Program-made: the position numbers and the translations under genes
Notes under the pieces: model-generated
Seen by the model: only the letters and a program-made list of their open reading frames with translations
What the model was told of the DNA's origin: nothing
Databases searched by the model: none
From: Patescibacteria group bacterium
GTDB taxonomy: Bacteria; Patescibacteriota; Patescibacteriia; Magasanikbacterales; UBA922
DNA length: 64,000 bases
NCBI GenBank assembly: GCA_018823045.1
Contig: JAHJIX010000024.1
Location: 2,677-66,676, forward strand
Reading direction: 5' to 3'
Part shown: one piece after another, positions 4,721 through 58,027 of the stretch
How the letters are laid out: each line of letters starts with the position of its first letter
How positions within the stretch are numbered: position 1 is the first letter of the stretch

Positions 4721-4731
4721 ATTATTGATGA

Positions 4732-7467
4732 TTATTGGATAATTTCAGTAACGATAATGTCATCAATAAAGGCCTGCCCTTCACCAAGACTAAATCGGAG
4801 GATTGGATTATCAGTAGTAAATGCAGCTCCATCAATCATGAAGAAATGCTCGCGCCATTCTCCATCTGTTGCATATGATTTTTTCTGAGGAATTCCACTT
4901 ACTGGTCCATTTGCACTATTATCTCCAATAATTGCATACAATGTTCCTGTATTTACTTTATACCAAAATGACAGTTCATAATCTTTGTCTGCATCAAATC
5001 GAAGTCCTTCTTGCAATACACCACCACTACTATTATCTATACCGCCAATTTCAAGTGATTGTACTCCACCATGCATATCAAGAACACTTTTACGCCAGTT
5101 TGTATTGCCACCCCATCCACGCCAATCATCTGTACCAATTTTTTCCATATCTCCATCAACAATTGAAGGTAAGACTTCTATTTCTGTTACTTCAATATCA
5201 TCAACAAATACTTGTCCGTCTCGCATACTCATACGAAATATTGGATTATTTGATACAAACCATGCACCATCAACAATAAATGTATGTTGTTTCCATGTGG
5301 CATCCGCATTTCCTGTCACAAAAGAAGTACCACTATTCACTGCAGCATTTGCACTATTGTCACCAATAATAGCATAAAATTTCCCTGCATTAAGCTTATA
5401 CCAAAATGAAACTTGATATTTCTTTGTCTTCTCAAATTTGAGGCCATCTTGAAGCACACCAGAACTACCATGCAATGCATCACCCACTTCTAAGGATTGA
5501 CTGCCTCCATGTACTTCTGCAACACTTTTACGCCAGTTTGTATTTCCACCCCATCCACGCCAATCATCTGTACCAATTTTTTCTAGATCAGCATCTTTCA
5601 ATACATCAACTACTGCAATTTCTTCAATTTGTATATCATCGATATATGCTTCACCAGACAACACACTTAATCTCACCCTAAAATCTTCTACAAAGTCAGC
5701 AGGGACAGTAAATTGTCTTTCATATACTTGCCAATCAGCACTGACTTGTGTCAACGCGTCAGGCGCAATTTCCATATCGGCATTTGAACTCCGAATCCCT
5801 AATATACTATATAATTCCCCTGACAACAATTTATATTTAAATCGAAATACGTATGTACCACCTGCTTGCACAGGCACATTTACTTGTTGAATTCCTGCAT
5901 GCACTGCGCCTTGTGAATCAATATATGATGAATACTCACCCTGATACGCTTCAACTGTTGTTTTAAATAAATAATCAACATTATTTGGTCGTCCCCAACG
6001 ACGCCACTCATTATTCATATCTTCCATATCGCCATCTACCACAATATTTCTTTGTGGCTCTCCGGTTAAAGTAACTGTATATACTCCAGTATCAGGGTCA
6101 TTACTCTCTACCACAACATCAATACTTATCGGTAATGCACTGTCTGTTGGTGTTAACTCAAGAGTAATGACTTCTTTGGCACCTACATCAAGACTGTCTA
6201 CTTGATGACTAAGCGTACAACTAGTATTTACGAGATTAATACAACGTATACTATCAATAGATAAGTCTACATTTCCATTATTTTGAAGCGTGATACTCTT
6301 TTGCCCCGCGCCAAGATCATCTATATACACATAACCTATATCAACACTTGTTCCAGAGGCAACGTCAACCATATCTACTTGAATTGCCATATTTGGCTCA
6401 ACGTCAGTCACCACCATGGTAATATAGCTCCAAATTGACCTCACTGTTTTCTTTATTCCATTCCACAAAGAAAATCCTGTATTATTTTCTGTTGAAAATA
6501 CTTGCCCTTCATACATATCCGCTGCGGGAAGATCCATTGAAACAAAAGATTGTTCATCTGAAATTGTTTCAATAATTTGTCCATCTTGACTGATCACATA
6601 TTGTTGTTTTTTTGCACCTGGTACAATAATTTCTTTTCCTACATGTTCTTCTGAAATATCAAGTAACAACGGTTGAGCAAGTGGCATATCATCAATATCA
6701 ACAGGAAACCCCGCAATCATCACTCCATTTTGTGTATTAAATGCAACAATATCGCCATTACGATCTACACCATAAATACGATCATTCCCGTTATCTACCA
6801 ATGGATAAATAACTGCCGTATCAATAATAAAAGTATTTGACAACGTCCATGTTTGTTCTTGTGTTTGTGTATAGACCTCTATTTTTTGTAACTCAGGATA
6901 TGAGACGAATATATCTTGTGTTCCTGCCATATACCCAAGTGTTGCAGGATTTCCAAGAGTGAGTACGCTTGTTACTCCTAAACTTCCAGCATTCCATACC
7001 ACCTGATACACAACACCAGCAGTATCTACAATCAACAGTGATTCTTCAGTAGTAGCAAACCCATCAATAACGATTGGATCATAATAAATATCAGTATTTC
7101 CAAGCACTATTCGATCAAGTTCTTGTGCTCTACTATCAAATAATGCTACGGCATATTGCCCGTTACTTTGCTTTACAACGACAGCAATTTCATTATATGC
7201 ATCACCCTGCATATTTGCGAGTATAGGTGAGCTTACATACGTTTCATCAACTAACAGTAGAGGAAAATCACTCATAATATTTCCATCATAACTCCAAAGC
7301 TCTAGCACTCCATCTTCAGTCACTATTGCTCGCTCCGGTCCTTGTGTGAGCGGAGTTGTATCTCCAAGTGCTGGAGAAAACTGTGCATGCCGTGCATATA
7401 CAGGCAAAGCTGTCAGTAAAACACCCAAAGTAAGCATCACACCAAACAATGTTTTTTTCTTATACAT
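4732..7467 (-). CDS. secreted protein with three tandem CBM4/9-like beta-sandwich modules at the C-terminus; paralog of 44648..46156
   Basis: ORF track 4732..7515. The start is more likely the internal ATG at 7467, which gives the signal peptide MYKKKTLFGVMLTLGVLLTALPVYA. Three ~150-aa repeats begin VVDGDMEDMNNEWRRWG / GTDDWRGWGGNTNWRKS and end in DDI.V.EI, the typical CBM_4_9 pattern. These share long identical stretches with the 502-aa protein at 44648..46156. Confidence 0.6.
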   Translation of the reverse strand: MYKKKTLFGVMLTLGVLLTALPVYARHAQFSPALGDTTPLTQGPERAIVTEDGVLELWSYDGNIMSDFPLLLVDETYVSSPILANMQGDAYNEIAVVVKQSNGQYAVALFDSRAQELDRIVLGNTDIYYDPIVIDGFATTEESLLIVDTAGVVYQVVWNAGSLGVTSVLTLGNPATLGYMAGTQDIFVSYPELQKIEVYTQTQEQTWTLSNTFIIDTAVIYPLVDNGNDRIYGVDRNGDIVAFNTQNGVMIAGFPVDIDDMPLAQPLLLDISEEHVGKEIIVPGAKKQQYVISQDGQIIETISDEQSFVSMDLPAADMYEGQVFSTENNTGFSLWNGIKKTVRSIWSYITMVVTDVEPNMAIQVDMVDVASGTSVDIGYVYIDDLGAGQKSITLQNNGNVDLSIDSIRCINLVNTSCTLSHQVDSLDVGAKEVITLELTPTDSALPISIDVVVESNDPDTGVYTVTLTGEPQRNIVVDGDMEDMNNEWRRWGRPNNVDYLFKTTVEAYQGEYSSYIDSQGAVHAGIQQVNVPVQAGGTYVFRFKYKLLSGELYSILGIRSSNADMEIAPDALTQVSADWQVYERQFTVPADFVEDFRVRLSVLSGEAYIDDIQIEEIAVVDVLKDADLEKIGTDDWRGWGGNTNWRKSVAEVHGGSQSLEVGDALHGSSGVLQDGLKFEKTKKYQVSFWYKLNAGKFYAIIGDNSANAAVNSGTSFVTGNADATWKQHTFIVDGAWFVSNNPIFRMSMRDGQVFVDDIEVTEIEVLPSIVDGDMEKIGTDDWRGWGGNTNWRKSVLDMHGGVQSLEIGGIDNSSGGVLQEGLRFDADKDYELSFWYKVNTGTLYAIIGDNSANGPVSGIPQKKSYATDGEWREHFFMIDGAAFTTDNPILRFSLGEGQAFIDDIIVTEIIQ

Positions 7468-7613
7468 AGAGCAAGAAATTAAAAAAAACGCAAAATAAAG
7501 CGTCTTTGTGAACAAAAATTAGATACAGGCTGATAGATTGTTACCCCTCGATAAATCATCCTATTGTATTATATCGTATTTAGTGTATCATACTTTAAAA
7601 AAAGGTCAAGAAA

Positions 7614-7943: not shown

Positions 7944-8678
7944 TCAATATCTTCTCTTTTTACTCCTCAATACCCCCCGAGCAACACTAAACCCCCATAC
8001 ACTATGCCCTTGCTCCTTTAATACTCGCGCAGCCTCCTGCATAGTTGCTCCAGTCGTATATACATCATCAACCAATAGTATATTTTCCCCAACGTGTTCT
8101 TGTGAAATATAAGCAAAAGCATCTTTTACATTTAACAAACGATCTTCTTTATTACACAGTGCTTGCTGTTTTGTCTGACGAGTACGTTGTAATAATTTTT
8201 GCTGTGAAATATTCAATTGCTTAGCTAAAATACTCGCAATATACTCTGATTGGTTAAATCCACGCTCTGCATAACGTTTTTTATGTAATGGAATAGCCAC
8301 CACAACATCAATTTTTTCATATACTTCTGGATATTTTTCCAACAACTGTTTAATACCTTCTTCTACGTATTGTATGCAGTCTTCTTCAAACTGATATTTC
8401 ACTCGATCAATAGCTTGAACCAAGACCAAATCCATATCATACGGGCACAGTGCAATATGTTGCTTTAAGTTTGACAAAGCCCGACAAGAAATACACACTT
8501 GTCCAAATTCTTGATCTATCTGACATATTGGACACAAAAACATCTCTTGAATCGAGATGTTTTGTTTACATGTTTTACAACAAACATTTCCCTCTTTTTT
8601 ACAGACTAAACAATAACTAGGAAATAATGCATCCAGACAACACTGTATGGCTCGCTTCCCCCATCTTGCGAGCAGCAT
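7944..8678 (-). CDS. comFC: ComF/ComFC-family competence protein (double zinc-ribbon N-terminus plus phosphoribosyltransferase domain)
   Basis: N-terminal Cys pairs CLVCKK..CCKTC...CPICQ...CISC. The PRTase signature ILLVDDVYTTGATMQEAARVL is present, with an RGFNQSEYIA...QQALCNKEDRLLNVKDAF middle block typical of ComF. Its ATG at 8678 lies 2 nt from the stop of the upstream gene (8681), so it appears to be in the same operon. Confidence 0.8.
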   Translation of the reverse strand: MLLARWGKRAIQCCLDALFPSYCLVCKKEGNVCCKTCKQNISIQEMFLCPICQIDQEFGQVCISCRALSNLKQHIALCPYDMDLVLVQAIDRVKYQFEEDCIQYVEEGIKQLLEKYPEVYEKIDVVVAIPLHKKRYAERGFNQSEYIASILAKQLNISQQKLLQRTRQTKQQALCNKEDRLLNVKDAFAYISQEHVGENILLVDDVYTTGATMQEAARVLKEQGHSVWGFSVARGVLRSKKRRY

Positions 8679-8680
8679 AG

Positions 8681-9256
8681 CTATTCTGTTTTATCCCAAT
8701 AAAATCCGTCAATCTTCCACTCTCCATTTACTTTTACTAATTCAACACGCCCATCTTTTTGTGTTATTTCTTGCTCATCCATGCTTTCTTTTATTTGTTG
8801 TGTATTTACTATTACAATCGCAGTGCTTTCATCCATTTCTTGCAATTGACTTGCAATTACTTGTGTTGAAACTCCCTCATACTCACGTGTATTTACTTCA
8901 CGCTGCGTTTCTAACCATGCGGCCATCGCAGGCATGACCATCGGTAGTACGTCATCAATATGTCGATTGTCATTTTGTGTTGATTCACTTGCAAAACGTT
9001 CAACAAAGATACGAGAAACTTGGCGTACATAACGCTCTCCCATATCTTCTGTCAACGGTGGCACCACTACTTCTTGCTGTACTGCTCTTGTCTGATTTAA
9101 ATCAACAACAGGTTCACCTTCATCTACAATAGTATCAGGAAGGACATCCACAACAACAGGCTCTCTTTTTTGAAATAAATAGAACAAAATAAACACTAAA
9201 ATAATACCAATAACAACACTGATAATGATAAAAAGTCTTTTTCGGAGATCTAACAT
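8681..9256 (-). CDS. hypothetical bitopic membrane protein (N-terminal TM, ~160-aa extracytoplasmic domain) within the T4SS-like operon
   Basis: A single TM helix at FIIISVVIGIILVFILFYLF sits near the N-terminus. It is tightly packed between the VirB4-like gene and comFC. The size and topology are compatible with VirB8/TcpC-like components, but no motif was recognised. Confidence 0.45.
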   Translation of the reverse strand: MLDLRKRLFIIISVVIGIILVFILFYLFQKREPVVVDVLPDTIVDEGEPVVDLNQTRAVQQEVVVPPLTEDMGERYVRQVSRIFVERFASESTQNDNRHIDDVLPMVMPAMAAWLETQREVNTREYEGVSTQVIASQLQEMDESTAIVIVNTQQIKESMDEQEITQKDGRVELVKVNGEWKIDGFYWDKTE

Positions 9257-9282
9257 ATAATATATATTACTTAAACAAGAAA

Positions 9283-11196
9283 CTAATATCCTTGCGGCGA
9301 TTGCCCGGTTTGTTGTACAAAATCTTTTTTCGCTTCTTCAATTTCGAGTAACTGTCGCGGATCTGAGGTAATCAACTGATCTTCTGTATATGATGCGACG
9401 ATCTTAATAGCAGCATGCTTGAGTCCTGCAAAGAAAATCCCTTCTCCTACCCCACTTTCAAGCAACAAATAGCGCTCCCCTTCTGTTAACATAAATGTTT
9501 TTTGAATCATATCAATCGCTGCAGGAGACTGACGCAATAGTAATTGAAGTGCTGAATTCGTTACAATTGCTTTTCCATAAGAAGAACCCAAAAAGTCATT
9601 CACATCTTGTGTAATCGTTGTTACTCCTAAATAATATTTACGACAACGTTTCACTAATGCATAGATAAACTTTGCAGAATCTTCATGCATCATTAACCAC
9701 CAGGCCTCGTCAATAATAAGCAAGCGTTTTTTCCTTTCGCTACGAACAATATTCCAAATATAGTTAATCAAAGTATAAATTGACATTGGACGAAGCTCAT
9801 CTTCTAAGTCACGTACACTAAACACCACCAACTGATTACTCATATTTACATTTGTTGGCGCATTAAAGAGTCCCGCAAATGTTCCATCTGTATACTTTCG
9901 TAATTTTAATACCAAATTTTCTGCCCCTTGCATTCCTTCTAAGACATCTAAAAAATCTTGCATAATTGGTGCCTCAACGGTCGCCAAATTTGATGAAGGA
10001 GTAATGTCTTTTTTTGCATATGTCTCAAGCAATGCCCGATCAACAATAGAATCCTCTTGCGGGGTCATACTACCAAACATGATCCGAACCAAACCTTTGA
10101 GAGTAATGACGGCACTGCGAATAATATCTTCTGTTGAAATTTGTTCTCCCCCGAGTGGTCGTGGTAAATCAAATGGATTAACATTACTTTCTGACGCCAA
10201 AGAAATGTTAATGTACGTTCCACCCACAGCTTCACTTAAATGTTCGTATTCTTTTTCTGGATCAATAATAATAACATCAATTCCCATCATCAAACTACGA
10301 AGTACCTCTAATTTAACGGCATAAGACTTCCCTGCACCAGAAGTCGCAAACACCACCATATTTGCATTTTGCAATGAAAAACGATCAAACAAGACTAAAC
10401 TATTATTATGGCGATTAATCCCATACAAAATACCATTATCACTCGTTAACTCAGAAGAAATAAACGGAAATGACGATGCAATCGGCGATGAATTCATGTT
10501 AAACGGAATATTCAAATCATCAATCCCGAGTGGTAATGTTGATGTAAACCCTTGCTCAGCCTGATACAACACATGTTTGGTATAAATCAATTTTGACCCA
10601 AACATATTTTCAACATCTTCGGTTACCTTATCTAGCTCTTTTTGTGAAGAAGCATACAGGGTAACATAAAATGCAAACTGAAAAAAATGCTCAATCCCTT
10701 GGGTTAAATCATCTCGTAATTGCTCAATATCTCTAAGAGCAGTTTCACGAATCGGATCACGAGGAGCTCCTTTTTCTGCATCGGCTGACAACTGTGCTTG
10801 AATTGCTCCTACTTTTTTCTTTAATTGTTTTAAAATAATCGTTGACTTGACCGGATAAAAAAACATGCTCAAATCCATGGTCACATTAATATTTAAAATT
10901 GGGGCGCTCCAACCAACAGAAATATAGCGAGGATAAGACACGACAAAAATTGTCCGTAAAAATGTCTCCCCTAATTGAATAAACGTTGATTCAACCCGAA
11001 AGGCTGCTGGCGCAATTAAATCTCTTATCGCAACGGTTCCCTCTCGATAAATACGCTCTTCTTTTAGCGTCACCAATTCTTCTTTTGTTTGTGTTGTATC
11101 ATGTTTTTTCAAAAAAAATCCACGCCGTTGTTTTTCTGGCGTTTGTTGTTTTTTTGGAGCAGAACCCTGCCCGTTTGTCATTGGACTAAATGGCAT
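9283..11196 (-). CDS. VirB4/TrbE/CagE-family conjugal-transfer-type ATPase
   Basis: Walker A is VVFATSGAGKSYAVK. Walker B carries the family-typical DEAW signature (RLLIIDEAWWLMM). A C-terminal GxGxGIFF-like block (ESGVGEGIFF) is present. The ORF is 637 aa. Confidence 0.75.
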   Translation of the reverse strand: MPFSPMTNGQGSAPKKQQTPEKQRRGFFLKKHDTTQTKEELVTLKEERIYREGTVAIRDLIAPAAFRVESTFIQLGETFLRTIFVVSYPRYISVGWSAPILNINVTMDLSMFFYPVKSTIILKQLKKKVGAIQAQLSADAEKGAPRDPIRETALRDIEQLRDDLTQGIEHFFQFAFYVTLYASSQKELDKVTEDVENMFGSKLIYTKHVLYQAEQGFTSTLPLGIDDLNIPFNMNSSPIASSFPFISSELTSDNGILYGINRHNNSLVLFDRFSLQNANMVVFATSGAGKSYAVKLEVLRSLMMGIDVIIIDPEKEYEHLSEAVGGTYINISLASESNVNPFDLPRPLGGEQISTEDIIRSAVITLKGLVRIMFGSMTPQEDSIVDRALLETYAKKDITPSSNLATVEAPIMQDFLDVLEGMQGAENLVLKLRKYTDGTFAGLFNAPTNVNMSNQLVVFSVRDLEDELRPMSIYTLINYIWNIVRSERKKRLLIIDEAWWLMMHEDSAKFIYALVKRCRKYYLGVTTITQDVNDFLGSSYGKAIVTNSALQLLLRQSPAAIDMIQKTFMLTEGERYLLLESGVGEGIFFAGLKHAAIKIVASYTEDQLITSDPRQLLEIEEAKKDFVQQTGQSPQGY

Positions 11197-11199
11197 AAA

Positions 11200-11874
11200 C
11201 TATATGTTTTCAACTTGCAATTGATCAATCGGCTTGAGCTGTTCGATAAATGAAATATCTGGATTATAGGTATTGTAAAACAATTCAATAACGGCTTGTG
11301 TATCAAGTGGTGCAACATATAAACCCATACTGGTAAGTCCACCAATAACTTGACGAACACGACTATCTAAATCTTGTTTTCTTTTTTGAAACTTTTCATC
11401 TTTTAATTTTACCGTTATTGCTGGATGAAATATTTCCTTCGCACGAGACCAAAAACTTTTCTTTTTGTTTGACAATGGATCATATGGCACCACAATATAA
11501 AATTGCTTCGTCATAATTTCTCCAATGTCAACAAGCTCTTTAATAAATGCCCGATAGTCCGCAATCTGAATTTGTAATAACTCATTTGTCTGATCTTTTT
11601 CTATCTTTCGCAAATTATCTAAATATGGCTGAATTTGTAATCGCCGTGATTGCACAATAATTTGTAATGGAAAATCAAGAGAATTCAAAAAACCTACATA
11701 AGAAGAAATCAAGGCAGTTTGCTCATCTTCTGATTTTAATGCAAAATTAATACTGGACGTAATCATCACACTCCGAAGCGTTCCATCTTTAAGAACAACA
11801 ATACCCTCTTTAATTTCTGAAATAGGTAAATGAGCCTGTGTTGAAGGGCGATTGTTTTTTTTCTTTTGTGCCAT
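11200..11874 (-). CDS. hypothetical protein, possible VirB4 N-terminal-domain-like component
   Basis: It is 3 nt upstream of the VirB4-like gene. The sequence pattern ISEIKEGIVVLKDGTLRSVMITSSINFALKSEDEQ..FLNSL..QIIV resembles the N-terminal substrate/membrane domain of Gram-positive VirB4-family proteins. This is inference only. Confidence 0.4.
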   Translation of the reverse strand: MAQKKKNNRPSTQAHLPISEIKEGIVVLKDGTLRSVMITSSINFALKSEDEQTALISSYVGFLNSLDFPLQIIVQSRRLQIQPYLDNLRKIEKDQTNELLQIQIADYRAFIKELVDIGEIMTKQFYIVVPYDPLSNKKKSFWSRAKEIFHPAITVKLKDEKFQKRKQDLDSRVRQVIGGLTSMGLYVAPLDTQAVIELFYNTYNPDISFIEQLKPIDQLQVENI

Positions 11875-11901
11875 AATGACATGAGCTACTATATATACCT
11901 A

Positions 11902-12333
11902 TTATACATCATCTGCCTTATAATAACCACCAGTATTTACAAGCAAAGATAAATCATGAATATGCTTTCTCTTTACTGTTTTTTGTTCAATAGCGACCTC
12001 TTCTTTTTTATCGATACCGAGCTCCATGAAATACTGCAATTCTTTATCTGTATATGACTTTTTCCAAATACGTAAACTAGGTTTTTTTAATGATTCAGAA
12101 ATATTTAACATAAAATAATGAAATGATTGACCATTTACTTTTGCAAATGCCAAAATAAGCGAAAAACCACCAATAAAAAATGTTAATATAATAAACAAGG
12201 TAAAATCAACAAAACGATTCAACAAAAAAATAATCATGCCAGTAACCAACAATATTAAAAATTGCCGAGTAGTCACTGGCCCAAAAATTTTATCTTCAAC
12301 ATCAATAAATTGTGGAACAACGAACTGTTGCAT
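11902..12333 (-). CDS. small membrane protein with two TM helices (VirB3-like position and topology)
   Basis: The hydrophobic hairpin is FLILLVTGMIIFLLNRFVDFTLFIILTFFIGGFSLILAF. It lies upstream of the VirB4-like module, matching the canonical VirB3-VirB4 gene order. Confidence 0.4.
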   Translation of the reverse strand: MQQFVVPQFIDVEDKIFGPVTTRQFLILLVTGMIIFLLNRFVDFTLFIILTFFIGGFSLILAFAKVNGQSFHYFMLNISESLKKPSLRIWKKSYTDKELQYFMELGIDKKEEVAIEQKTVKRKHIHDLSLLVNTGGYYKADDV

Positions 12334-12431
12334 AGCTATTATCTTATTTCTGTATCAAGTATTTTTTGACTTTTTGATGCGTTTAATTTCAGTTGTCCGA
12401 TTTTTTCGGACAACTAAACACATACAATATA

Positions 12432-14036
12432 CTACCCCAAAACAGTTCTATTAATACGAACAATAGCATCAAATTCTTCTTGGCTTAACTGCTGATACTG
12501 TGCCAATATTTGAACAATTGGCAATTGTTGCCGAATTGCATCAGCCACAACATCTTGATACAAACGAAATAATGGACTAGAACGCCAAGCATCTTGCGCA
12601 TCTAAAAACAATATATAACTTTCTTTTTGCAACCGTTGCATTTTTTCAACAATTTTACTTACTTGCGCGTCAGCATGATCACTTAAACGACGAAATTCTT
12701 CAAGCGTATACCCAGCTAACTCTTCTACTGGCCCAACAGCTTTACGTGTATAGTTTGGGGCAACAACATCTTGCACAAGTGGTTTTTGTGGCATACTCGG
12801 TCGTTGTGGAGCAATCGGTACAGTATAGGGAATATCTCGAGCAGGTTCCTCAGGAATGATATTTGGTTTTGGAGCAACAACTTCTTTTGGTACTTCTTTA
12901 GCAGAATCAATCGCAGGAAGTTCATCAACTTCTTGCGTAGACACTTGATGCATTTCTTCCATTATTTTTGCAGCAACAGTCGCATCAAGTCCCAATCCTC
13001 CTTGATCTACTGCCTGTAATAAATAATTTAATACTTCTCTACGTGTTCGGATTCCTTTTAAAAATGATACTGCTAAAGCCGCAAAACGATCTTCTAATTC
13101 TTGAGGAATACTTCCTTTTACCGCAGCAATCATATGCATTTTTTTCTGCACAAGCTCTTCATCTAGTGAAGAAACTCCCCCACCTTCTTCCAATGAATCA
13201 TCTTCTTCCAAAAGTGAAGAATAATCTTCGTTCCCCCACTCAACTTGTTTTTTTTCTTCTTTCTTTGGCACACGCACACCCAAATCATCAAATTGCACTT
13301 TTTCTTTCACCATTGCTTCTGCTTCGTTAACAAATGCATGTGCTACGGGTGTTGTTGTTGCCAACTCATGCGCTGCCTCTACCATAAGCTCTTTTGCCTC
13401 TGGCACAATACCAAACATTTCATCAGTGACCTTAAAATCATCTTCCTCTTCATCAAAATCAGGAAGATCTGACAAATCAAACAATCGATCATCGTCATTA
13501 TCTACAACAGGATCAATATCTGGTAAATCACTTAAATCAAACAATATTTCCCCGTCGTCTGCATCATCTACTGGGATCGGTGTTTTATCTTCCACTTTTT
13601 TTTGCTTATCTAAGACAAACACAATATCATCACTATTATCTACCGCTCCTGGCAACATATCTGCATCAATATACGGAATTTTTTCTTTTTGCTCTTCAAT
13701 CTTTTTCGCAACCGGTACGGTTGTCTGTGTGGTTACTTTATTTTTTCTACGACGACGTCGTTTTTTCTTTACAGGCAAAGAAGCCAGATCTTTTATTTCA
13801 TTATTATTGTCTTTCACTTGAACAACAGCAGGTTTATGTGAAGACGTAACTTTCGTGTTTTGAACAACAGGTTTGCTTGGCACAACTTTAGTGGAACTGG
13901 ACTTGTCAGGCGCAACTTTAGTGGAGCCTGAAGCACGAAGCTCAGCCAATGTCATACGAACAGAAGTTCCATCTTTTTTCTTTACCAAAATACTAGGTTG
14001 TGATGTAGTTTTTTGATCCATACTTATATATTCCAT
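12432..14036 (-). CDS. highly acidic, low-complexity (D/E-rich) protein with a KKKRRRRRKNK patch; hypothetical T4SS-operon component
   Basis: A 534-aa ORF. Long D/E runs (DDADDGEILFDLSDLPDIDPVVDNDDD) are repeated with an FDLSDLPD motif. Its start overlaps the upstream gene by 13 nt, which suggests translational coupling. Confidence 0.5.
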   Translation of the reverse strand: MEYISMDQKTTSQPSILVKKKDGTSVRMTLAELRASGSTKVAPDKSSSTKVVPSKPVVQNTKVTSSHKPAVVQVKDNNNEIKDLASLPVKKKRRRRRKNKVTTQTTVPVAKKIEEQKEKIPYIDADMLPGAVDNSDDIVFVLDKQKKVEDKTPIPVDDADDGEILFDLSDLPDIDPVVDNDDDRLFDLSDLPDFDEEEDDFKVTDEMFGIVPEAKELMVEAAHELATTTPVAHAFVNEAEAMVKEKVQFDDLGVRVPKKEEKKQVEWGNEDYSSLLEEDDSLEEGGGVSSLDEELVQKKMHMIAAVKGSIPQELEDRFAALAVSFLKGIRTRREVLNYLLQAVDQGGLGLDATVAAKIMEEMHQVSTQEVDELPAIDSAKEVPKEVVAPKPNIIPEEPARDIPYTVPIAPQRPSMPQKPLVQDVVAPNYTRKAVGPVEELAGYTLEEFRRLSDHADAQVSKIVEKMQRLQKESYILFLDAQDAWRSSPLFRLYQDVVADAIRQQLPIVQILAQYQQLSQEEFDAIVRINRTVLG

Positions 14037-15151
14037 TGAAAAGAGGTTGTTGTTTCATCAAAAAAGATTAAGTCAGGCTCAGTATAGCCTTGTGATTGAA
14101 ACCAGGTATCTAAATCGAGTAATTTTTGAATATGCTCTTCTGTTAATTGCAACATTTGTTTTTTTAATTCTTTTGCAACGCTTTGTTTTGCTTGTTTTTT
14201 ATCTTTATCTTGAGCCCAGGTTAAAAATGCACTTTTTCCTTCATCACTTTGCATCCATGCTAGTGGGGTTTTGTTTGTTTGCAATTGATTGAGAAAATTT
14301 GGTTTTTTTGGAGTGGCAACTTCTTGAATTATTTCAGTAGTTTTAGGAAAAACATCAGAAATTGGTTGATTAGAAAATTCATGCGGCGTTAACACAATAT
14401 CTGCTTGACCTGAATTTTTCAATTCTTGGACAACCCGTTCTTGATCTTTTTCTAATAATTCATACCAATCATCATGCTCTAAATGAAGTAATATATCGGG
14501 CAAATCGTTTTTTTTAGTATCTTGAAAAAAGGTAACAACATCAATAAAATTATTGACACATTCTTCTGAAGAAAAAAATGGAAAATGCTGCACCACGGCC
14601 TGATACGCAGTAGGTACACCCACAAAATTTACTAATTCTTTATATAACTGACTCCGGCCAAAACTATCCATTTTTTTATTGTTCATTCGTGTAACGATAT
14701 CTTTAATGGTATAAACTTTTCCATTTATCTCTCCTAAATACGCACTTGATTCTAACAAAGATTTTTTACAAAATGAAAATAATTCCATTGATTCTTCATC
14801 TGTATTTGACCATTGAATACAATAAGAGAGCAACTTATCAATTGGATCAAAACCTAACTGAATAGCAAGCCAAATTTGACGTTCAAAGGCATCTACAATT
14901 TCTACTCGTTTAAGTAATTGCCATTTTTGCCAAGTTAACTGTGTATACCAACGAAGATAACTATGTAAAACAATACGATCATTTTGTTTATCTTGTGTTG
15001 AAAAGTATTTTAACCACTCAAGCCAGAGTTGATCTCGCTGTGCAGGATCATCATATGCAATCCAAAAGGCGTCTTCGAGTTGTTTAAACTCCGAAGGATT
15101 TTGAATGATATGTACTTGTAATAATTTTTGATCCATACTATTATTATGCAT
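14024..15151 (-). CDS. hypothetical protein (T4SS-like operon)
   Basis: A 375-aa ORF. It is 3 nt downstream of the VirB6-like gene and overlaps the next gene. No recognisable motif. Confidence 0.5.
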   Translation of the reverse strand: MHNNSMDQKLLQVHIIQNPSEFKQLEDAFWIAYDDPAQRDQLWLEWLKYFSTQDKQNDRIVLHSYLRWYTQLTWQKWQLLKRVEIVDAFERQIWLAIQLGFDPIDKLLSYCIQWSNTDEESMELFSFCKKSLLESSAYLGEINGKVYTIKDIVTRMNNKKMDSFGRSQLYKELVNFVGVPTAYQAVVQHFPFFSSEECVNNFIDVVTFFQDTKKNDLPDILLHLEHDDWYELLEKDQERVVQELKNSGQADIVLTPHEFSNQPISDVFPKTTEIIQEVATPKKPNFLNQLQTNKTPLAWMQSDEGKSAFLTWAQDKDKKQAKQSVAKELKKQMLQLTEEHIQKLLDLDTWFQSQGYTEPDLIFFDETTTSFQWNI

Positions 15152-15154
15152 TTA

Positions 15155-18100
15155 TTATGGGTTTCCTCCTTGAGGAGTTGGTGATGGATTTTGAGGTGGT
15201 CGTGGAGGTAAAAGGGGAATACCTAAACTTCTATGTAAATCAGCAGTACGTTCTTGAAAAAGTACTTTTGCATTATGATCAGTAAATCCATCAACAATAC
15301 TCCTTAATAACTTTTCTATATTACCCTTAGCTGCATCATCCATTCCTTCAATCTTAATTCCATTAATTGACTTCCATAAAGAAGACTGCACTTGAGTTGC
15401 CAAAGTATTAGCATTTTTACCTTCAAATAAACTAGTAACTGTCTGTATTTGCGCATTACTTATGCCAGTGACTCCTAATTTTTTCACTTTCTTCTTTATA
15501 TCATTGCCATTAGCATCTTTCTTTGGTTGCCCACTGTCATCTGTATCCACAACTTCTACTTCAACTTGCCCCATTGTCATTAAACTACCAATTTCATCAA
15601 CGGTATTTAACTTTATACGCCCAGCATAATAATCAAGGGTATCTTGATCTAATGTTTGTTGTCTACTTTGTTTTTGTGTTTCTGCTGTTACAGGATCTTC
15701 TTTTACTCCCCAAGTAGCTACATGTTTTTTTGTATCATGATCATAATAATTTCCAGAACCAAACGAAAGTTTCAACTCACCAGGCTGGTCATCCTTACCT
15801 CTTGTAACTCCTTCTGAAACAATCCCAATATTATTGGTATCTCCTAACATAGCTGCCGTCTTTTGAGATTTTAATAATTGTCTCATAACAGCTTGTCTTG
15901 CTTCGTCACCTCCATATGCATTATTAAATTCTATCATGGCTTCTTCCATTCCTCCGTCATTGTTTTCGACAACCCTTCCAAGTAAACGAGATAAATGTGC
16001 ACGAACACGATTTTTTTCATTTAATTCAACATCTTCAGGATTTGATTGATCGGCCCAACCAATTGTATTTAAACCAACAGTTAATCCATCACGAGCTGAT
16101 TCAAGATCAGCGGTATTATTGATAGTTGTTAAAGAAGTCTTTTGACGAATTAACGCATCACGTAATTTAGCTTGTTCTCGTGTAGCTGTACCTCCAGAGT
16201 GTCTAATTTCATCTTGAACTTTTTTCAAAGCTCTCCCCAACTGCGCTTCTGTTTGCATTCTTTCAGCATAATTTAAAGAACCAAATACCTCGGCATCTTT
16301 TTTAGCCCAAGTATCTTCAAACATTCGTAAAGCAGCTGTAGCACGAGGAATATCTCCTGCAGCAGCATAGTCATCGGCTGTAGCTCTTGCAATTTTTCTT
16401 TCTGTTTCTCGTTGAATGTCAAGAGCAATACGTGCACTACCAGCACTCTCAAGTGCCGCCTTAATAGTTCCTTCATATTCAAGTGCTCTATCTCCTCTCT
16501 TACCAATTTCATCAGCAACAGTTCCTTTTTTCTTTTTTTGTTCACCACCTTTAATTCGTCCTCCCATTAATAATTCTTGTTGACCAAAAGATTGAAATTC
16601 TCTATCTTTTTCTGCTTTTCTTTTTTTCTCTCCTTGCATAACACCTTCTAAAAACCTATCACGAGGAAGACCTGCTAAATCACTTAAATCAATACGGTTT
16701 TCAGGACTAATATTATAAGTTCCGTCATCATTTCTTAATGCCGCTACTTCCTCTTTTTTTAAGATTCTGCCTTCTTTATTATAAGCAGCAACTCTATTAC
16801 CATCTTGATCAGTATAGACATGTTTTTGTTCAATCACGACAGTAGCCTTACCATCTTTATGTGCTAATCCTTTTATTTCATGGCCATCTCGATCTCGTTC
16901 ATTAAACTGATATGTCATTAACATACCTGTTTGTGCTTCAGTTCTTGTATATACTAATGACTCTTCCATTTTTGCGGCACCCTCCATTTTTTTCCATCTT
17001 TTTTGTCTATCCACATAACCACGCACACCACGCCCAATAAATTTTTGTATTCCTCCCATAGAAGGATCTCCCTCTGCCACACGACGCCCTAATGACCACA
17101 TATGTGCTTTTGCCGCATATCCTTCAGCTTTTAATCTATCCATAGGAATAGATGCCGCTAATTTACCAATCCCCTTAGCCACACCAACAGTCTTACCACC
17201 CAACCATCTCCCAGCAGCAACACCACTCGCGATTGTTCCAACTTTTTTTCCAAATTCTTTTGCATTTGAGACCATGCCACTTCCCATAGTTCCTAATTTG
17301 GACACTTGATCAATACCAACATACAAAAAGGCAAGGGCTACTGCAAAATTCGCTAAATTATCCCAACTCCCAGCAGCATTTAACGATACACCGGGTTTTG
17401 CCTGAGTAACTTCATCAATTTTTGTTAAATCAACATTTGCTTTTAATGGATGATTTGTCTGTAAATGCCCATATGCTCCTGACTCTCCACCCAGTGTCGC
17501 AAAGGCGAGCCACATGAAAAACACCATAATTGGCGCTGCAACGAGATAATTGAAAAATTCTTTCCAAAATTGATCACCGTATGATTTTGTATTTGGCAGT
17601 ACAGCAAGTAAAAATGCTAATGGAGACAAAATCATTGCCGTCCAAAGTGCAACCATACGCGCAAGTGCCACAACAACATAAGCGAGTATCATCATCATCG
17701 CCATACCAGCAATGACAATAGCCATGACACTCGCCCCAAAGACTTCAATATCTACCCGTTCCCCTTGATATCCATTACCACCTAAAGCAATTTCTAGTAC
17801 TTTATCAAAAGAAAATAATTGTATTAAGTTACCACCCGCAGTGGCTGCAATAGCATTTAAAAACGTAATCGTAAAGACTTGCACGACGTCAATCATGAGC
17901 TGCAAGATCATGTTACTAAAATTAACCAATACCGCAGCAATAACTAATTTTACTAATGTTTTTCTCCACTCATATTGCTCTATTCCTAATATTGTTCCAA
18001 AGGCAATGGCCATGAGTATAACAATAAAAAACATATTGACCACATCACGCACCATATTCCACCCAAGCTTTACCACAGGCGCATCGATATAGTTATTATA

Positions 18101-18358
18101 CCCAGTAACTAAGATGAAAAATTTTAAAAAGAAAATGGTCATCTGAATAAATAAGCGAGCAATCATTAAAATTAATTTACTCACTGCATTTAAAATGCCA
18201 TCAGTAACGGTTGTTAAATCAAAGGCAGCATATACTGGCTCAACAAAAAACAATACACCAAGCATTACAGCGCTTAAACCAAAGAATACTGCCACGCTTT
18301 TCCGGCCAGTTATTTTTATTTTTTTTAGCTTTTGATACATCCTTTTTATCGGGTTCAT
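15155..18358 (-). CDS. VirB6/TrbL-like polytopic membrane protein with long hydrophilic C-terminal extension
   Basis: An N-terminal ~400 aa carries at least six predicted TM helices (VAVFFGLSAVMLGVLFFV, IFFLKFFILVTGY, FFIVILMAIAFGTILGI, LVIAAVLVNFSNMILQLMIDVV, VMAIVIAGMAMMMILAYVVVALARMVALWTAMILSPLAFLLAVL, LVAAPIMVFFMWLAFATLG). A charged C-terminal half of ~600 aa follows. This is the typical architecture of Gram-positive and CPR VirB6-like proteins. Confidence 0.6.
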   Translation of the reverse strand: MNPIKRMYQKLKKIKITGRKSVAVFFGLSAVMLGVLFFVEPVYAAFDLTTVTDGILNAVSKLILMIARLFIQMTIFFLKFFILVTGYNNYIDAPVVKLGWNMVRDVVNMFFIVILMAIAFGTILGIEQYEWRKTLVKLVIAAVLVNFSNMILQLMIDVVQVFTITFLNAIAATAGGNLIQLFSFDKVLEIALGGNGYQGERVDIEVFGASVMAIVIAGMAMMMILAYVVVALARMVALWTAMILSPLAFLLAVLPNTKSYGDQFWKEFFNYLVAAPIMVFFMWLAFATLGGESGAYGHLQTNHPLKANVDLTKIDEVTQAKPGVSLNAAGSWDNLANFAVALAFLYVGIDQVSKLGTMGSGMVSNAKEFGKKVGTIASGVAAGRWLGGKTVGVAKGIGKLAASIPMDRLKAEGYAAKAHMWSLGRRVAEGDPSMGGIQKFIGRGVRGYVDRQKRWKKMEGAAKMEESLVYTRTEAQTGMLMTYQFNERDRDGHEIKGLAHKDGKATVVIEQKHVYTDQDGNRVAAYNKEGRILKKEEVAALRNDDGTYNISPENRIDLSDLAGLPRDRFLEGVMQGEKKRKAEKDREFQSFGQQELLMGGRIKGGEQKKKKGTVADEIGKRGDRALEYEGTIKAALESAGSARIALDIQRETERKIARATADDYAAAGDIPRATAALRMFEDTWAKKDAEVFGSLNYAERMQTEAQLGRALKKVQDEIRHSGGTATREQAKLRDALIRQKTSLTTINNTADLESARDGLTVGLNTIGWADQSNPEDVELNEKNRVRAHLSRLLGRVVENNDGGMEEAMIEFNNAYGGDEARQAVMRQLLKSQKTAAMLGDTNNIGIVSEGVTRGKDDQPGELKLSFGSGNYYDHDTKKHVATWGVKEDPVTAETQKQSRQQTLDQDTLDYYAGRIKLNTVDEIGSLMTMGQVEVEVVDTDDSGQPKKDANGNDIKKKVKKLGVTGISNAQIQTVTSLFEGKNANTLATQVQSSLWKSINGIKIEGMDDAAKGNIEKLLRSIVDGFTDHNAKVLFQERTADLHRSLGIPLLPPRPPQNPSPTPQGGNP

Positions 18359-18441
18359 GGAAAATAGTATTATGTACCCATATGTGGATATATTATACCA
18401 TATTATTTGATCTATGTGAAAGGATGCTTTCTACGATGTTG

Positions 18442-19494
18442 TTATACCCTAAAATAATGATGTACAGCAAATTCAAATTGTTTTTTAAATAATTCTTTAA
18501 AATAAGAAATATTTTGTTGCTCATAAAAAAGAACAACTGCTTTTTTATATTCAGCATTTTCTACTCCTCTAAATGATAGCGGGCAAATATCATAAGCAAA
18601 TAAGAGCGCATTGCCCATTAATCGGCTCGTCCGTTTATTTCCATCTTCAAATGCTTGAATATATGCAATGCACACCATAAGTAATACCACCTTATCAAAT
18701 GGGTTTTTTGCTTTGTTTACTAATACACAAGTTTTTTCTAATGCTTCACGTATCTGAAATTCATTATCAAGTGGCAAATACTCTGTCCCCACAATCCGCA
18801 CCATTGTCTTTCGCAAATTTCGAGAAATACCCAAATCCTTGGTCAATAATGAATGAACATCTTCAACCTTTGCAACAGAAATATCTTTAAATATATCTGC
18901 ATTTTTTTGAATATACTCTAAAGCAAATTTATGATTTAATAACATTACACTTTCACTATGACTATGATTTGGTGCTTCTTTTGCTTCTTTAAGTAATACC
19001 TCTGTATCAAGCAAAGAGTAAGTATTCCCCTCTAATTGAGAAGATTTCCAACTCAGCTCAATCATAAGTCGTTCATATTCCTTTTGCAATAATGTAGAAG
19101 AAAGCTGTTGTTTATGTTTTCTATATGTAGTATTTAATGCTTCTAACTCTATTATCTCATCTTCATTAAATATGTTAGTTTCCATATCAAACACAGAAAA
19201 ATCAAATTGCTGATTTATTTTTCTTTGATCAAATTCCGTTTGAAAATACTCCTCAACATTAACAGGATATAACACCTTATACGTTGCAGATAATATATAT
19301 ACCAAAGCCCTTCCCTTTCCTTTTTTCTCTAGATATTTCAAATCAAGAAGAACATTTATATCTCTATTTACCGTAATCTTTGAAATGTTTTCCTCAGTAT
19401 TTTGTAAAAAAGACAATAAATCAGAAATAGATCCTTCATTATGTTCTTTTATATATGCAAGAATATACTCTTGTCTCTTATTTATTTTGATCAT
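18442..19494 (-). CDS. Fic/DOC-family protein with N-terminal DeoR-like winged helix; catalytic His of the Fic motif replaced (QAFEDGNKRTSR)
   Basis: The N-terminus MIKINKRQEYILAYIKEHNEGSISDLLSFL is DeoR-like. The conserved Fic block SSQLEGNTYS is present. The region aligning to HPFx[DE]GNGRxxR reads IQAFEDGNKRTSRL. The start is ambiguous: in-frame candidates are ATG 19494 (chosen, best for the HTH domain boundary), ATG 19515 and GTG 19530. Confidence 0.6.
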   Translation of the reverse strand: MIKINKRQEYILAYIKEHNEGSISDLLSFLQNTEENISKITVNRDINVLLDLKYLEKKGKGRALVYILSATYKVLYPVNVEEYFQTEFDQRKINQQFDFSVFDMETNIFNEDEIIELEALNTTYRKHKQQLSSTLLQKEYERLMIELSWKSSQLEGNTYSLLDTEVLLKEAKEAPNHSHSESVMLLNHKFALEYIQKNADIFKDISVAKVEDVHSLLTKDLGISRNLRKTMVRIVGTEYLPLDNEFQIREALEKTCVLVNKAKNPFDKVVLLMVCIAYIQAFEDGNKRTSRLMGNALLFAYDICPLSFRGVENAEYKKAVVLFYEQQNISYFKELFKKQFEFAVHHYFRV

Positions 19495-19503
19495 AAAAAA
19501 GTT

Positions 19504-19593
19504 TAATCGTATCATTTTTAAGTAAAACACTCCTCTAATCGTATCATAAATGATACGATTAAGCTACTTTTTAGGCCTAAAATGATACGATTA
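19504..19593. promoter_or_regulatory. operator-like array: four copies of the 12-mer TAATCGTATCAT, two direct and two inverted, including a perfect 26-bp palindrome
   Basis: TAATCGTATCAT occurs at 19504-19515 and 19536-19547. Its reverse complement ATGATACGATTA occurs at 19550-19561 and 19582-19593. The central pair forms TAATCGTATCAT-AA-ATGATACGATTA. The outer copies are each 32 bp away. The array is immediately upstream of, and overlapping, the start region of the wHTH-Fic gene. Confidence 0.5.
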
Positions 19594-19761
19594 GTGCTTG
19601 AAATATTATTTTTTAGCTTATTTAAGCTATTTTTTAAAATCACTACAAAACCTTATATTTATTGCTTTTTATCACCATTTTTTACAGTAAATAACCAAAA
19701 TACAACACAAGCAAATAAAAAGATATACACAGGAACTTATCCACAAATACCCCTTAGCAGT

Positions 19762-19790
19762 TGACAAAATGATAAATATGTACTATAGTC
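19762..19790 (+). promoter_or_regulatory. sigma70-like promoter (TTGACA-17 bp-TATAGT)
   Basis: ttgacaaaatgataaatatgtactatagt. Consensus -35, a 17-nt spacer, and a 5/6 match at -10. It points toward the plus-strand gene at 20004. Confidence 0.4.
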
Positions 19791-20003
19791 GGGATATAAG
19801 GCTATATAGTATTTAGAATAAAATATTTTATTATAGTATAATATAAGCAAAGTGTCAAATGTTACATTGTGGATAAAAATTAATCCTTAGGGAATATACA
19901 GAGTGAGCACTGACAATCTGTCAGTGAGTACGCTAGATGTTCCTTAATCCTAGGGGACATCACAACCATTGCGCTACTTGCAGGAGTAGCTAAGGAGTTC
20001 CCG

Positions 20004-20378
20004 ATGCGCAGCATCAACCCCGCGCTCCTCTTGAGCGCAATTCTGTTCCTTTTCCCGATCTTCTTCGGGGCTTGCGCCGAAGAAGAGGACTTCCCCACAA
20101 CAGATGAGACTTTCACAGAGTCTCACCACCAAAATCCCCCCATCGTCGACAAGGCGGACTCCCCTCTGGAGTACCCGCAAGAAGACGCGGGTGTCGAAGA
20201 TGAACCACCACCTGACGATAAAATTGATTATACCTGTGCTACAGCAACAGGCAGGTATGATGGAGAGTATTGCCCAGGCTTAGACTCAACACTTCACTAT
20301 GATTATACTACATGTCGATATACCTGTGCAGGTGATCCTGGATTACCTGAAGAATTAGTAGACCATGTATGTAATTAA
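20004..20378 (+). CDS. small secreted, possibly lipidated, cysteine-rich acidic protein
   Basis: A strong SD (taaggagttcccgATG) precedes the start. The signal peptide is MRSINPALLLSAILFLFPIFFGAC. An acidic linker follows. The C-terminal domain has 6 Cys (CATATGRYDGEYCPGL...CRYTCAGDPG...HVCN). The local GC content is visibly higher than the flanks. Confidence 0.55.
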   Translation: MRSINPALLLSAILFLFPIFFGACAEEEDFPTTDETFTESHHQNPPIVDKADSPLEYPQEDAGVEDEPPPDDKIDYTCATATGRYDGEYCPGLDSTLHYDYTTCRYTCAGDPGLPEELVDHVCN

Positions 20379-29300: not shown

Positions 29301-29301
29301 A

Positions 29302-29925
29302 TTATTGAGATAATGAATCTTCTTGCAACACATCTTGCACCAACAACAATAAATCGTCATTGCTAATGGTGTCTAACTGTTCTTGCGTAATACCCCCACT
29401 TTGTAAGAGTAATGCTCTAATTTGCTCAGGATCTTGCACAACGGCATTCACATCCAATTCGACTTCTTCAGGTACTTGTGGAATAAGACTATCAATAGCC
29501 GCTGTGGTTTCTTCATTTATCCCATTAAATTCAAATACTTCTTCTTCAATAGAAGCTTCTTCACTTCTTATACAATCTTGCCCTGCAGGACAAAGCGGAT
29601 CTTGACCGGCATCTAATTCTTCTTTATCTGTGACTCCATCTGAATCGGTATCTGGTAAATATGGACTTGTTTCGTAAAAATATAATTCTTCATAATTATT
29701 TAACCCATCTTGATCAGTATCAATGGATTGCAAACGCACCGTTTCATCTTCATATAATACTGATCCATCTCGCTCAGCACTTGCGGGTCGCACAACAAAT
29801 GGCCCATACAATGTATTTCTCATTTGTAAAAATCCAAGCCCAACAGCTAACACACAAAAAACAAGCAATAAAACAAATCCTGTTTTTTGCTCTTGCGTTA
29901 ATGGTGATGCGGGATGTTGTCGCAT
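29302..29925 (-). CDS. membrane-anchored protein with thrombospondin-type-3-like Ca-binding repeats
   Basis: A TM helix at GFVLLLVFCVLAVGLGFL is followed by DTDQDGLNNYEELYFYETSPYLPDTDSDGVTDKEELDAGQD (DxDxDG repeats) and an acidic tail. It is translationally coupled to the giant gene downstream. Confidence 0.55.
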   Translation of the reverse strand: MRQHPASPLTQEQKTGFVLLLVFCVLAVGLGFLQMRNTLYGPFVVRPASAERDGSVLYEDETVRLQSIDTDQDGLNNYEELYFYETSPYLPDTDSDGVTDKEELDAGQDPLCPAGQDCIRSEEASIEEEVFEFNGINEETTAAIDSLIPQVPEEVELDVNAVVQDPEQIRALLLQSGGITQEQLDTISNDDLLLLVQDVLQEDSLSQ

Positions 29926-40071: not shown

Positions 40072-40284
40072 ATCTCCCCCTTTCTTGATTTGTAGACTTT
40101 CATCAAGTCTACAGTTGTGGTTATACAGTTGAACAATACTGCCCCCCTGTAAAAAAAACAAAAGAATAATATACTTATATCCTTTTCACAGAGAAACAGT
40201 TATTGCATGTTCTTAATTGTAAAAAACAAAAAAGTAAGTGGGACTATTAAATAACAAAAGCAAACTTTTGTCAAGAGATGTGAA

Positions 40285-46508: not shown

Positions 46509-47252
46509 ATGTACAACACAAACAATCAAAAAACAACGCACATTTTCCTCTCTGGACTAAGTCTTTTAGCACTGACCGCTTTTTTAACATTTTTAGCGCT
46601 ATTTGGCTATTATCTTTGGATAGAAGTCATGGGCTCCCCAGAAGAAAAACAAGAGATCTTTCAACAATTTTCAACACAATTTAGAGAAATACCAGAAAAT
46701 ATTGCATATAATGGTGAATCCCTCAGCACGGACGAAGTTGAGGCACTTATTTACAACAATACTCCTGTGCTTGGTATTGCAAATGCCCCGGTAACAATTG
46801 TTATGTTTATCGACTTTCATTGTCCATATTGCATACAATCATACGAGACACTCAAGTCAGTACAAGAACAATATGGTCCTGTTCTTCGTGTCGTATTTAA
46901 ACACTTCCCGGTTGATGCACTCGATGCTGATGCCACACAAACGGCAATTGCAGCACAATGTGCACAACAATCTGGACAATTTTGGCCTTATTATAGCAAA
47001 ATATTTGAATCCGAAGCGCGAGACAGCACCACGCTCACCGCATATGCACATGCACTTGGTATTCCTTTAGACACATTTCAATACTGTATACAAACAGAAC
47101 AAAGTAAAGCGCATATTTTAGCAGACATTGAAGATGGAGTTGATGTAGAAATTCGGGGTACCCCAACCTATATAGTTAATGGACAAAAAATTGAAGGAGC
47201 CATTACACGAGAACAATGGGATACACTGATTATTCAATCACTCAAACAATAA
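46509..47252 (+). CDS. DsbA-family thiol:disulfide oxidoreductase, membrane-anchored
   Basis: An N-terminal TM is followed by a thioredoxin fold with the active site FHCPYC and the surrounding pattern (VTIVMFIDFHCPYCIQ...GTPTYIVNGQ). Confidence 0.7.
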   Translation: MYNTNNQKTTHIFLSGLSLLALTAFLTFLALFGYYLWIEVMGSPEEKQEIFQQFSTQFREIPENIAYNGESLSTDEVEALIYNNTPVLGIANAPVTIVMFIDFHCPYCIQSYETLKSVQEQYGPVLRVVFKHFPVDALDADATQTAIAAQCAQQSGQFWPYYSKIFESEARDSTTLTAYAHALGIPLDTFQYCIQTEQSKAHILADIEDGVDVEIRGTPTYIVNGQKIEGAITREQWDTLIIQSLKQ

Positions 47253-53708: not shown

Positions 53709-53711
53709 ATG

Positions 53712-57083: not shown

Positions 57084-57135
57084 ATATAGCTAACATAAAG
57101 AAGGCCTAAAAAAGCCTTCTTGAATAGAGTAAAAT

Positions 57136-58026: not shown

Positions 58027-58027
58027 A

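Follow-up and report, generated by a model that had tools for sequence, protein, structure and literature searches.

The eight-gene unit that runs from position 18358 to position 7944 on the minus strand of the window, as the whole 64-kb stretch of Candidatus Magasanikbacteria (Patescibacteria, class ABY1) chromosome examined here will be called, has the composition of a monoderm-type cytoplasmic-membrane translocon. With a probability of about 85%, this locus is the ABY1 form of the published monoderm type IV secretion system (T4SS) of the Patescibacteria, a derivative of the MPF-FATA systems, with comFC as its conserved last gene. The block derives from Gram-positive (MPF-FATA) conjugation machinery. 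The feature is real and strongly conserved, and it does not represent a new kind of system. A preliminary description of this DNA had named the block as the best candidate for an undescribed system; such systems were described in 2025 (Quiñonero-Coronel et al. 2025, PMC12102498), and it was the alternative offered by the same description, a minimal VirB4/VirB6 system as reported in small-genome episymbionts, that filed the locus correctly.

The published Patescibacteria T4SS has a VirB4 that forms a monophyletic clade related to MPF-FATA. The genes for TrsD, PrgI/VirB3 and VirB6 are found near virB4, and the TrsD-like protein is the commonest component of the system. VirB8 homologues are rare and occur almost only in ABY1; VirB2-like pilins are present, relaxases are almost absent, and ksgA, dnaA and similar genes lie nearby. 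The T4SS loci of ABY1 commonly include comF, recG and radA, for which a 'functional coordination' has been suggested (PMC12102498; these systems are reviewed in PMC12857230). The locus in the window agrees with this picture in all its main traits. Its VirB4 is of the monoderm, Patescibacteria type, as seen from its NF045971 score and from its 80-100% identity to Patescibacteria and Magasanikbacteria proteins: an NCBI protein labelled 'Patescibacteria group bacterium' matches it at 100% identity, and more than 100 cluster representatives do so at 80-91%, many of them under the name Candidatus Magasanikbacteria, a group included in class ABY1 (PMC12577380). The TrsD-like and PrgI genes adjoin virB4, a VirB6-like polytopic protein is encoded close by, and the genome encodes a protein with a VirB2-type pilin domain. 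Pfam scans of the open reading frames (ORFs) of at least 120 amino acids (aa) found no relaxase or coupling protein domain in the window, as the preliminary description had maintained of this T4SS-derived operon, and the context is one of housekeeping genes, with ksgA nearby. comFC belongs to the block itself, and the recG, radA and pilin neighbors reported in PMC12102498 were found again in related loci.

In the direction of transcription, the unit begins with the gene of an extended VirB6-like polytopic membrane protein (15155-18358; 1067 aa). It is followed by the genes of a 375-aa soluble protein (14024-15151), which is a lineage-restricted accessory, and of a 534-aa soluble protein (12432-14036), which is a universal component of the block. 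Then come a PrgI/VirB3-like protein with two transmembrane segments (11902-12333; 143 aa), a TrsD-like protein corresponding to an N-terminal VirB4 domain with a gene of its own (11200-11874; 224 aa), the VirB4-family ATPase (9283-11196; 637 aa), and a VirB8-like bitopic protein (8681-9256; 191 aa) composed of an N-terminal transmembrane helix, a disordered linker and an NTF2-like domain. The last gene is comFC (7944-8678; 244 aa), the product of which combines a zinc ribbon with a phosphoribosyltransferase (PRT)-type domain. All these genes lie on the minus strand. In the same direction, the successive gaps measure 3, -13, 98, 27, 3, 26 and 2 nucleotides (nt), so that the comFC ATG is found 2 nt past the VirB8-like stop codon. 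A gene with Fic and winged helix-turn-helix domains (18442-19530, minus strand) precedes the VirB6-like gene at a distance of 83 nt and lies outside the unit. The nine minus-strand ORFs of the preliminary description were all recovered with its coordinates except at the Fic end, where the region had been drawn to 19593 and the actual ORF starts at 19530. Its gap range of -13 to +27 nt with one 98-nt exception was reproduced on recalculation, but the 83-nt gap before the VirB6-like gene had been missed. The compactness and co-orientation of the block say little by themselves, because the minus strand carries almost all the genes of the window, throughout which the GC skew is negative. The block counts as a unit because its synteny is conserved.

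This synteny was followed in a scan of one genome per species, in which VirB4 was found at 438 or more loci. Of these, the best 80, with VirB4 identities of 69-85% and names from Magasanikbacteria, Uhrbacteria and Falkowbacteria, were taken with 10-kb flanks, and genes were counted by tblastn in those loci that had enough sequence. The order VirB6-like, 375-aa slot, 534-aa protein, PrgI, TrsD, VirB4, VirB8-like and comFC is conserved on one strand. TrsD and PrgI are each present in 77/77 loci, and the 534-aa gene stands directly upstream of PrgI in 70/70. The VirB6-like gene was found in 47 of 51 loci, the VirB8-like gene in 57 of 67, and comFC, directly downstream, in 62 of 67; the last two are separated by a median of 18 nt, and by no more than 30 nt in 33 of 55 loci. 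The 375-aa gene is confined to 10 of 64 loci (19 loci by iterated hidden Markov model (HMM) search), and Fic is found in none of 47. Clustering of all the locus genes shows that exactly seven families make up the conserved block. Beyond the block the neighbors vary: no family is found in more than 8 of 59 loci after comFC, or in more than 6 of 39 before the VirB6-like gene. As both flanks are variable, comFC belongs to the conserved unit. Background synteny was considered as an explanation of the comFC adjacency and was rejected, because synteny stops exactly at comFC. The recurrence of comFC at the end of the operon, which the preliminary description had proposed to check, is thus borne out. 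VirB4 is 69-91% identical across ABY1 genomes and, to judge by sequence comparison, the block is under strong purifying selection and is vertically inherited.

Genes of the 23S_rRNA_IVP type, encoding four-helix bundles, are scattered in various gaps of the related blocks, with 21 copies in total (for example L068:8427-8798, and five copies in L077), and many of the larger gaps in those blocks are due to them. The 98-nt gap between the PrgI and 534-aa genes of the window is one of the positions where such genes occur in relatives.

The central ATPase matches NF045971 (the CD1110 family of VirB4) with an E-value of 6.8e-104 and 348.6 bits against a cut-off of 325, and PF19044 matches as well. 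Among structures in the PDB, it is related to VirB4 (4ag5, 1.3e-43) and more distantly to TrwK (6.5e-6). Its Walker A (GAGKS, residues 287-291) and Walker B (DEAW, residues 496-499) motifs are invariant in 27 sequences. The 224-aa protein matches positions 96-236 of NF045975 (VirB4_plasma; E 1.2e-8), TrsD/TraD of NF041427 (E 4.4e-8, below the curated cut-off) and positions 11-105 of NF045971 (E 1.7e-6), so that its earlier assignment as a VirB4 N-domain-like protein holds. This part of VirB4 has its own ORF, about 228 aa long, in 77/77 loci, and the split is therefore ancestral. For the same reason a frameshift or pseudogene was rejected as its cause. The 143-aa protein, whose hydrophobic segments lie within residues 19-67, matches PF12666 (E 1e-6, 29.6 bits against a cut-off of 27), in agreement with its description as a VirB3-like protein with two transmembrane segments.

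The remaining membrane components were identified by HMMs and fold searches, for which the AlphaFold2 alignments were shallow (a word-indexed homologue search gave only 9 matches with the 191-aa sequence and 13 with the VirB6-like one). The 1067-aa protein has about seven hydrophobic segments in residues 19-291, followed by a hydrophilic C-terminal part of about 700 aa with no recognized fold. Neither half matches a Pfam or NCBIfam family even at E-values up to 5-10, and the family profile gives low-complexity matches only when compared with the PDB. HMMs and the predicted fold nevertheless support the view that this is an extended VirB6-like protein; of the earlier VirB6/TrbL-like assignment, the polytopic nature is confirmed and the fold agrees, whereas matches to HMMs are confined to sub-threshold ones in homologues. 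HMMs and fold searches also support a VirB8-like identity for the 191-aa protein, which is bitopic with its N-terminus inside, carries an extracytoplasmic NTF2-like domain and is encoded in a T4SS operon. The sequence profile of its family found no meaningful match in the PDB.

The 534-aa protein has an acidic, disordered N-terminal half with a K/R patch, and its conserved part spans residues ~212-533. Its family has 2053 representatives at E-values up to 1e-3. No sequence match was found for it in Pfam or NCBIfam (E-values up to 5-10) or in the PDB, even with a 44-sequence profile, and a profile of the C-terminal domain found no meaningful match in the PDB either. The 375-aa protein has no Pfam or NCBIfam family at E-values up to 5-10. 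Its family was found only in the 19 related loci noted above, where the gene always lies between the VirB6-like and 534-aa genes; in other loci this slot is occupied by another family (cluster 15). As no hydrophobic or transmembrane segment was found in either of them, the 534-aa and 375-aa proteins are not membrane proteins. The "unknown membrane proteins" of the preliminary description thus include one true case, the bitopic 191-aa protein, but not these two. Similarly, of the four proteins that it listed as uncharacterized, those of 375 and 534 aa remain without a family, but the 191-aa protein is VirB8-like and the 224-aa protein TrsD-like.

That the block ends in comFC, with its ATG 2 nt behind the preceding stop codon, had been recognized from the outset, and the gene assignment is sound. 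The protein matches TIGR00201 (comF) over its full length with an E-value of 1.6e-26, below the subfamily cut-off, as well as PRK11595 (GntX; 2.4e-25) and the PF00156 and DZR_2 domains; the single sequence gave no meaningful match in the PDB. In 63 sequences the zinc-finger cysteines C23, C26, C34 and C37 are 100% conserved, as are residues D204, D205, T208, G210 and T212 of the PRT loop, with V206 at 95% and T209 at 87%. The protein therefore has the four-cysteine zinc finger and the PRT-type domain with a phosphoribosyl pyrophosphate (PRPP)-loop motif that mark the ComF family, and it may accordingly bind single-stranded DNA (ssDNA).

Using these assignments, it is possible to outline how the machine might work. 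A VirB4 hexamer would be docked on VirB3, VirB6 and VirB8, and would energize an envelope-spanning conduit or a pilus at the site of contact with a host cell. We infer the host-contact conduit, which matches the homologous system of Saccharibacteria: S. epibionticum cannot grow epibiotically without its T4SS (Wang et al. 2023, PMC10633639). ComFC is a membrane-associated, ssDNA-binding protein that links transport to recombination (PMC9005727). By co-transcription, it would be produced whenever the T4SS is produced. The chances are about even that the role of comFC is DNA uptake or handling co-regulated with host contact, or that the gene is a passenger. This reading is favored because of the Saccharibacteria genetics and because the linkage is restricted to one class. 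The transcript would probably begin at a promoter-like site (TTCACA, 17 nt, TG-TATAAT; 18420-18392, minus strand) within the 83 nt that separate the Fic stop codon from the start of the VirB6-like gene. The site has 11 of 12 matches and the extended -10 TG, making it the second best of the region, and it should be taken as a lead only.

Several observations weigh against the assignment and the mechanism as just described. The region contains 49 promoter-like sites where 49.1 are expected, which is not above chance; both promoter and terminator scans give counts equal to those of shuffled controls and cannot decide the transcript structure. The single transcript from ~18.4 kb to 7.9 kb would follow from the gaps and the synteny. 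All 80 loci come from one clade (VirB4 at least 69% identical), so that the counts do not represent independent events. The VirB6 assignment depends on a medium-confidence model, with a predicted local distance difference test (pLDDT) score of 66, and on sub-threshold HMM matches in homologues. To our knowledge, there is no cultivated representative of ABY1, and some ABY1 may not be epibionts. Essentiality and the role in host contact are extrapolated from another class, the Saccharimonadia, in which the locus is different. The S. epibionticum locus (SEML1_0006-0019) has a pilin array and lysozyme or peptidase genes, all of which are missing from the operon described here; here comFC is terminal, a VirB8-like protein and the universal 534-aa protein are encoded, and a gene for a giant 2949-aa protein lies upstream.

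A further-reaching interpretation is that the T4SS itself takes up host or environmental DNA, and that ComFC at the cytoplasmic face passes the single strand to recombination or salvage. Such a machine, which we regard as somewhat unlikely, would be comparable in function to Helicobacter ComB together with ComEC/ComFC, or to the archaeal Ced system; this analogy, itself tentative, would not make it a member of either. In a more explicit and still less likely form, the T4SS and ComFC of ABY1 would be one DNA-import machine, in which VirB4 and TrsD pull DNA through a VirB6/VirB8 channel during host contact and ComFC receives the single strand, possibly together with the K/R patch of the 534-aa protein, so that the ComEC/ComFA route is supplemented or replaced. 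The position of comFC inside a conserved block with varying flanks, usually translationally close to the VirB8-like gene, speaks for DNA import, and the invariant zinc-finger and PRT motifs indicate that ComFC is functional. In addition, recG (11 loci) and radA (10 loci), neither of which is in this window, occur within 10 kb of the block in more distant relatives. DNA import would need neither a relaxase nor a coupling protein, both of which are missing here. Patescibacteria lack de novo nucleotide synthesis (PMC10633639), the known place of action of ComFC is ssDNA at the membrane (PMC9005727), and 'functional coordination' is the published suggestion for ABY1 (PMC12102498). In S. epibionticum, however, ComEC, ComF and DprA are dispensable, unlike the essential T4SS, and it is ComEC that transformation requires (PMC10633639). 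The comFC linkage has been reported for class ABY1 only, whereas the T4SS is phylum-wide (PMC12102498). Moreover, comFC is missing from its slot in 5/67 loci, three of which (L049, L055 and L077) have pilin-domain genes there instead, ~0.6-1.5 kb downstream of the VirB8-like gene, and the operons of reduced genomes often hold functionally unrelated passengers.

The other explanations concern the origin of the block and are far less probable. The likeness to the Gram-positive MPF-FATA systems (pCF10 Prg, pIP501 Tra, pGO1 Trs and the CD1110 system of C. difficile CTn2) extends to the CD1110-family VirB4, the PrgI-type VirB3, the separate TrsD-type N-domain protein, an NTF2-fold VirB8-like protein (compare PrgL, TraM and TraH) and the absence of an outer-membrane core. 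As NF045971 is a conjugative family, and as two tRNA-Ser genes, of a kind that commonly serves as an integration site, lie just downstream of comFC, the block might be taken for a conjugative element derived from an integrative and conjugative element or a plasmid, or for its decaying remnant, integrated beside these tRNA genes. This explanation is largely refuted and is very improbable. Unlike the conjugative MPF-FATA systems, which bring a relaxase, a coupling protein and a VirB1-type hydrolase on a mobile element, the window has none of these and no PrgB-type adhesin; its T4SS genes are vertically inherited chromosomal core genes, with comFC in the operon and a pilin-domain protein elsewhere in the genome. 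Pfam scans found no integrase in or beside the block and no peptidoglycan hydrolase is encoded near it, while its GC content resembles that of the rest of the chromosome. The block occurs in at least 80 species with VirB4 69-91% identical and motifs intact, as vertical inheritance under purifying selection would predict, and mobility genes never accompany it, although its flanks differ among genomes. True homology with Helicobacter ComB, the apparatus named first in the preliminary description, is refuted as a claim of membership and has next to no probability left. Like H. pylori ComB, the block is derived from a T4SS, has no relaxase or coupling protein and is connected genetically or functionally with ComFC, which permits an analogy in DNA import. 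ComB brings double-stranded DNA to the periplasm for ComEC, and comFC lies outside the comB operons. The argument for homology comes down to VirB3, VirB4, VirB6 and VirB8 homologues that co-occur with a competence gene. But ComB is a diderm MPF-T system made of ComB2-4 and ComB6-10, including the VirB7/9/10 core, whereas the host here is monoderm and no VirB7, VirB9 or VirB10 homologue was found among the ORFs scanned. The VirB4 of the window is of another clade, scoring 119.7 bits with TIGR00929 (VirB4_CagE; cut-off 643) against its score of 349 bits with the CD1110 family, and the split VirB4 with its TrsD-like part is a feature of pGO1-type Gram-positive systems. The archaeal Ced system (CedA/CedB) likewise has a VirB4/HerA-superfamily ATPase in a cell without an outer membrane, and it imports DNA. 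Unlike Ced, the block encodes no CedA-like protein, and the similarity to CedB stays at the level of the P-loop (46.6 bits with NF041017 against a cut-off of 700, in the P-loop region only).

Upstream of the T4SS unit, the Fic gene is a later, unrelated insertion. Its Fic and winged helix-turn-helix domains, recognized earlier, were confirmed by Pfam, but the proposal that it is the first gene of the operon does not hold. It is not part of the unit because it is absent from all 47 related loci, sits in a patch with a GC content of 0.30, has operator-like repeats of its own and is separated by the 83-nt promoter-bearing gap. The 12-nt motif TAATCGTATCAT occurs four times on the two sides of the Fic start codon, twice per orientation and with a spacing of 32 nt, and a perfect TTGACA-17-TATAAT site is found at 19858-19830 in the Fic region (18442-19900, minus strand). 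By these sequence features the module looks autoregulated and recently inserted. A role of Fic as operon regulator or effector was rejected, since the gene is not conserved. Between Fic and the gene of the 2949-aa protein lies a 124-aa ORF (20004-20378), the sole plus-strand gene of that stretch; it encodes a signal peptide and a cysteine-rich mature part and has no family.

Two other gene products of the window might be related to the T4SS. The 2949-aa protein (20511-29360, minus strand) has an N-terminal transmembrane or signal segment, and gave no match in Pfam or NCBIfam (E-values up to 5-10) or in the PDB. By tblastn, 16 of 47 loci encode homologues of its C-terminal ~500 aa ahead of the VirB6-like gene (21 loci by HMM). 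The association is weak, and the protein could be a T4SS-associated surface protein or a substrate. A 483-aa secreted protein (47265-48716, plus strand) has a VirB2-type T4SS_pilin domain (PF18895, E 5.3e-7) and a cysteine-rich tail, and its gene adjoins that of a DsbA-like thioredoxin (46509-47252, plus strand). The pilin-domain gene is 28 kb away from the block; 8 related loci have homologues of it (E-values down to 8e-23) no more than 10 kb from the block, sometimes in several copies. The 483-aa protein probably belongs to the same T4SS as an unlinked component.

The housekeeping genes that surround the block are ksgA, enolase, pgk, gapdh, tsf, rpsB, rplS, gmk and uvrA. At the left end (2-7515, minus strand), the window encodes a secreted protein of 927 aa that carries three CBM_4_9 domains. 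The next gene product, an RHS-repeat/CARDB/DUF6531 protein, is at least 1573 aa long, extends past the window end and may be a polymorphic toxin or an adhesin. A 778-aa protein with MopE-type metal-binding motifs is encoded in a patch with a GC content of 0.44 (37825-41166), where its gene adjoins that of an IS30-like transposase (HTH_38 and rve domains; 40294-41166); it may have been acquired horizontally. A tRNA-Ile with the anticodon TAT (UAU) is present at 53711-53784 on the minus strand. Such a tRNA is unusual in bacteria, as AUA is normally decoded by a lysidine-modified CAU tRNA. Several consecutive genes (56304-59736, minus strand) look like those of an ATP-citrate lyase or a citryl-CoA synthetase/lyase, with a citrate synthase C-domain, a CoA-binding/ligase part, and ATP-grasp_2 with Citrate_bind, which is unexpected for a metabolically reduced genome of the candidate phyla radiation.

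To the published account of the system, the analysis adds that a VirB8-like gene, here of 191 aa, is present in most ABY1 loci, that the block has a universal soluble component in the 534-aa family, that comFC lies within the block with unconserved flanks, and that Fic is outside the unit. Few machines are known to be indispensable to the epibiotic life of these ultra-small bacteria, and the Patescibacteria T4SS is among them. The presence of comFC inside the ABY1 block is the clearest genomic hint that this T4SS might handle DNA, and leads to the hypothesis that ComFC interacts with the T4SS. A mechanistic link between the T4SS and ComFC in DNA import is possible on this genomic evidence. If it is true, T4SS-ComFC import would feed recombination, for which relatives encode RecG and RadA close by, as well as nucleotide salvage.

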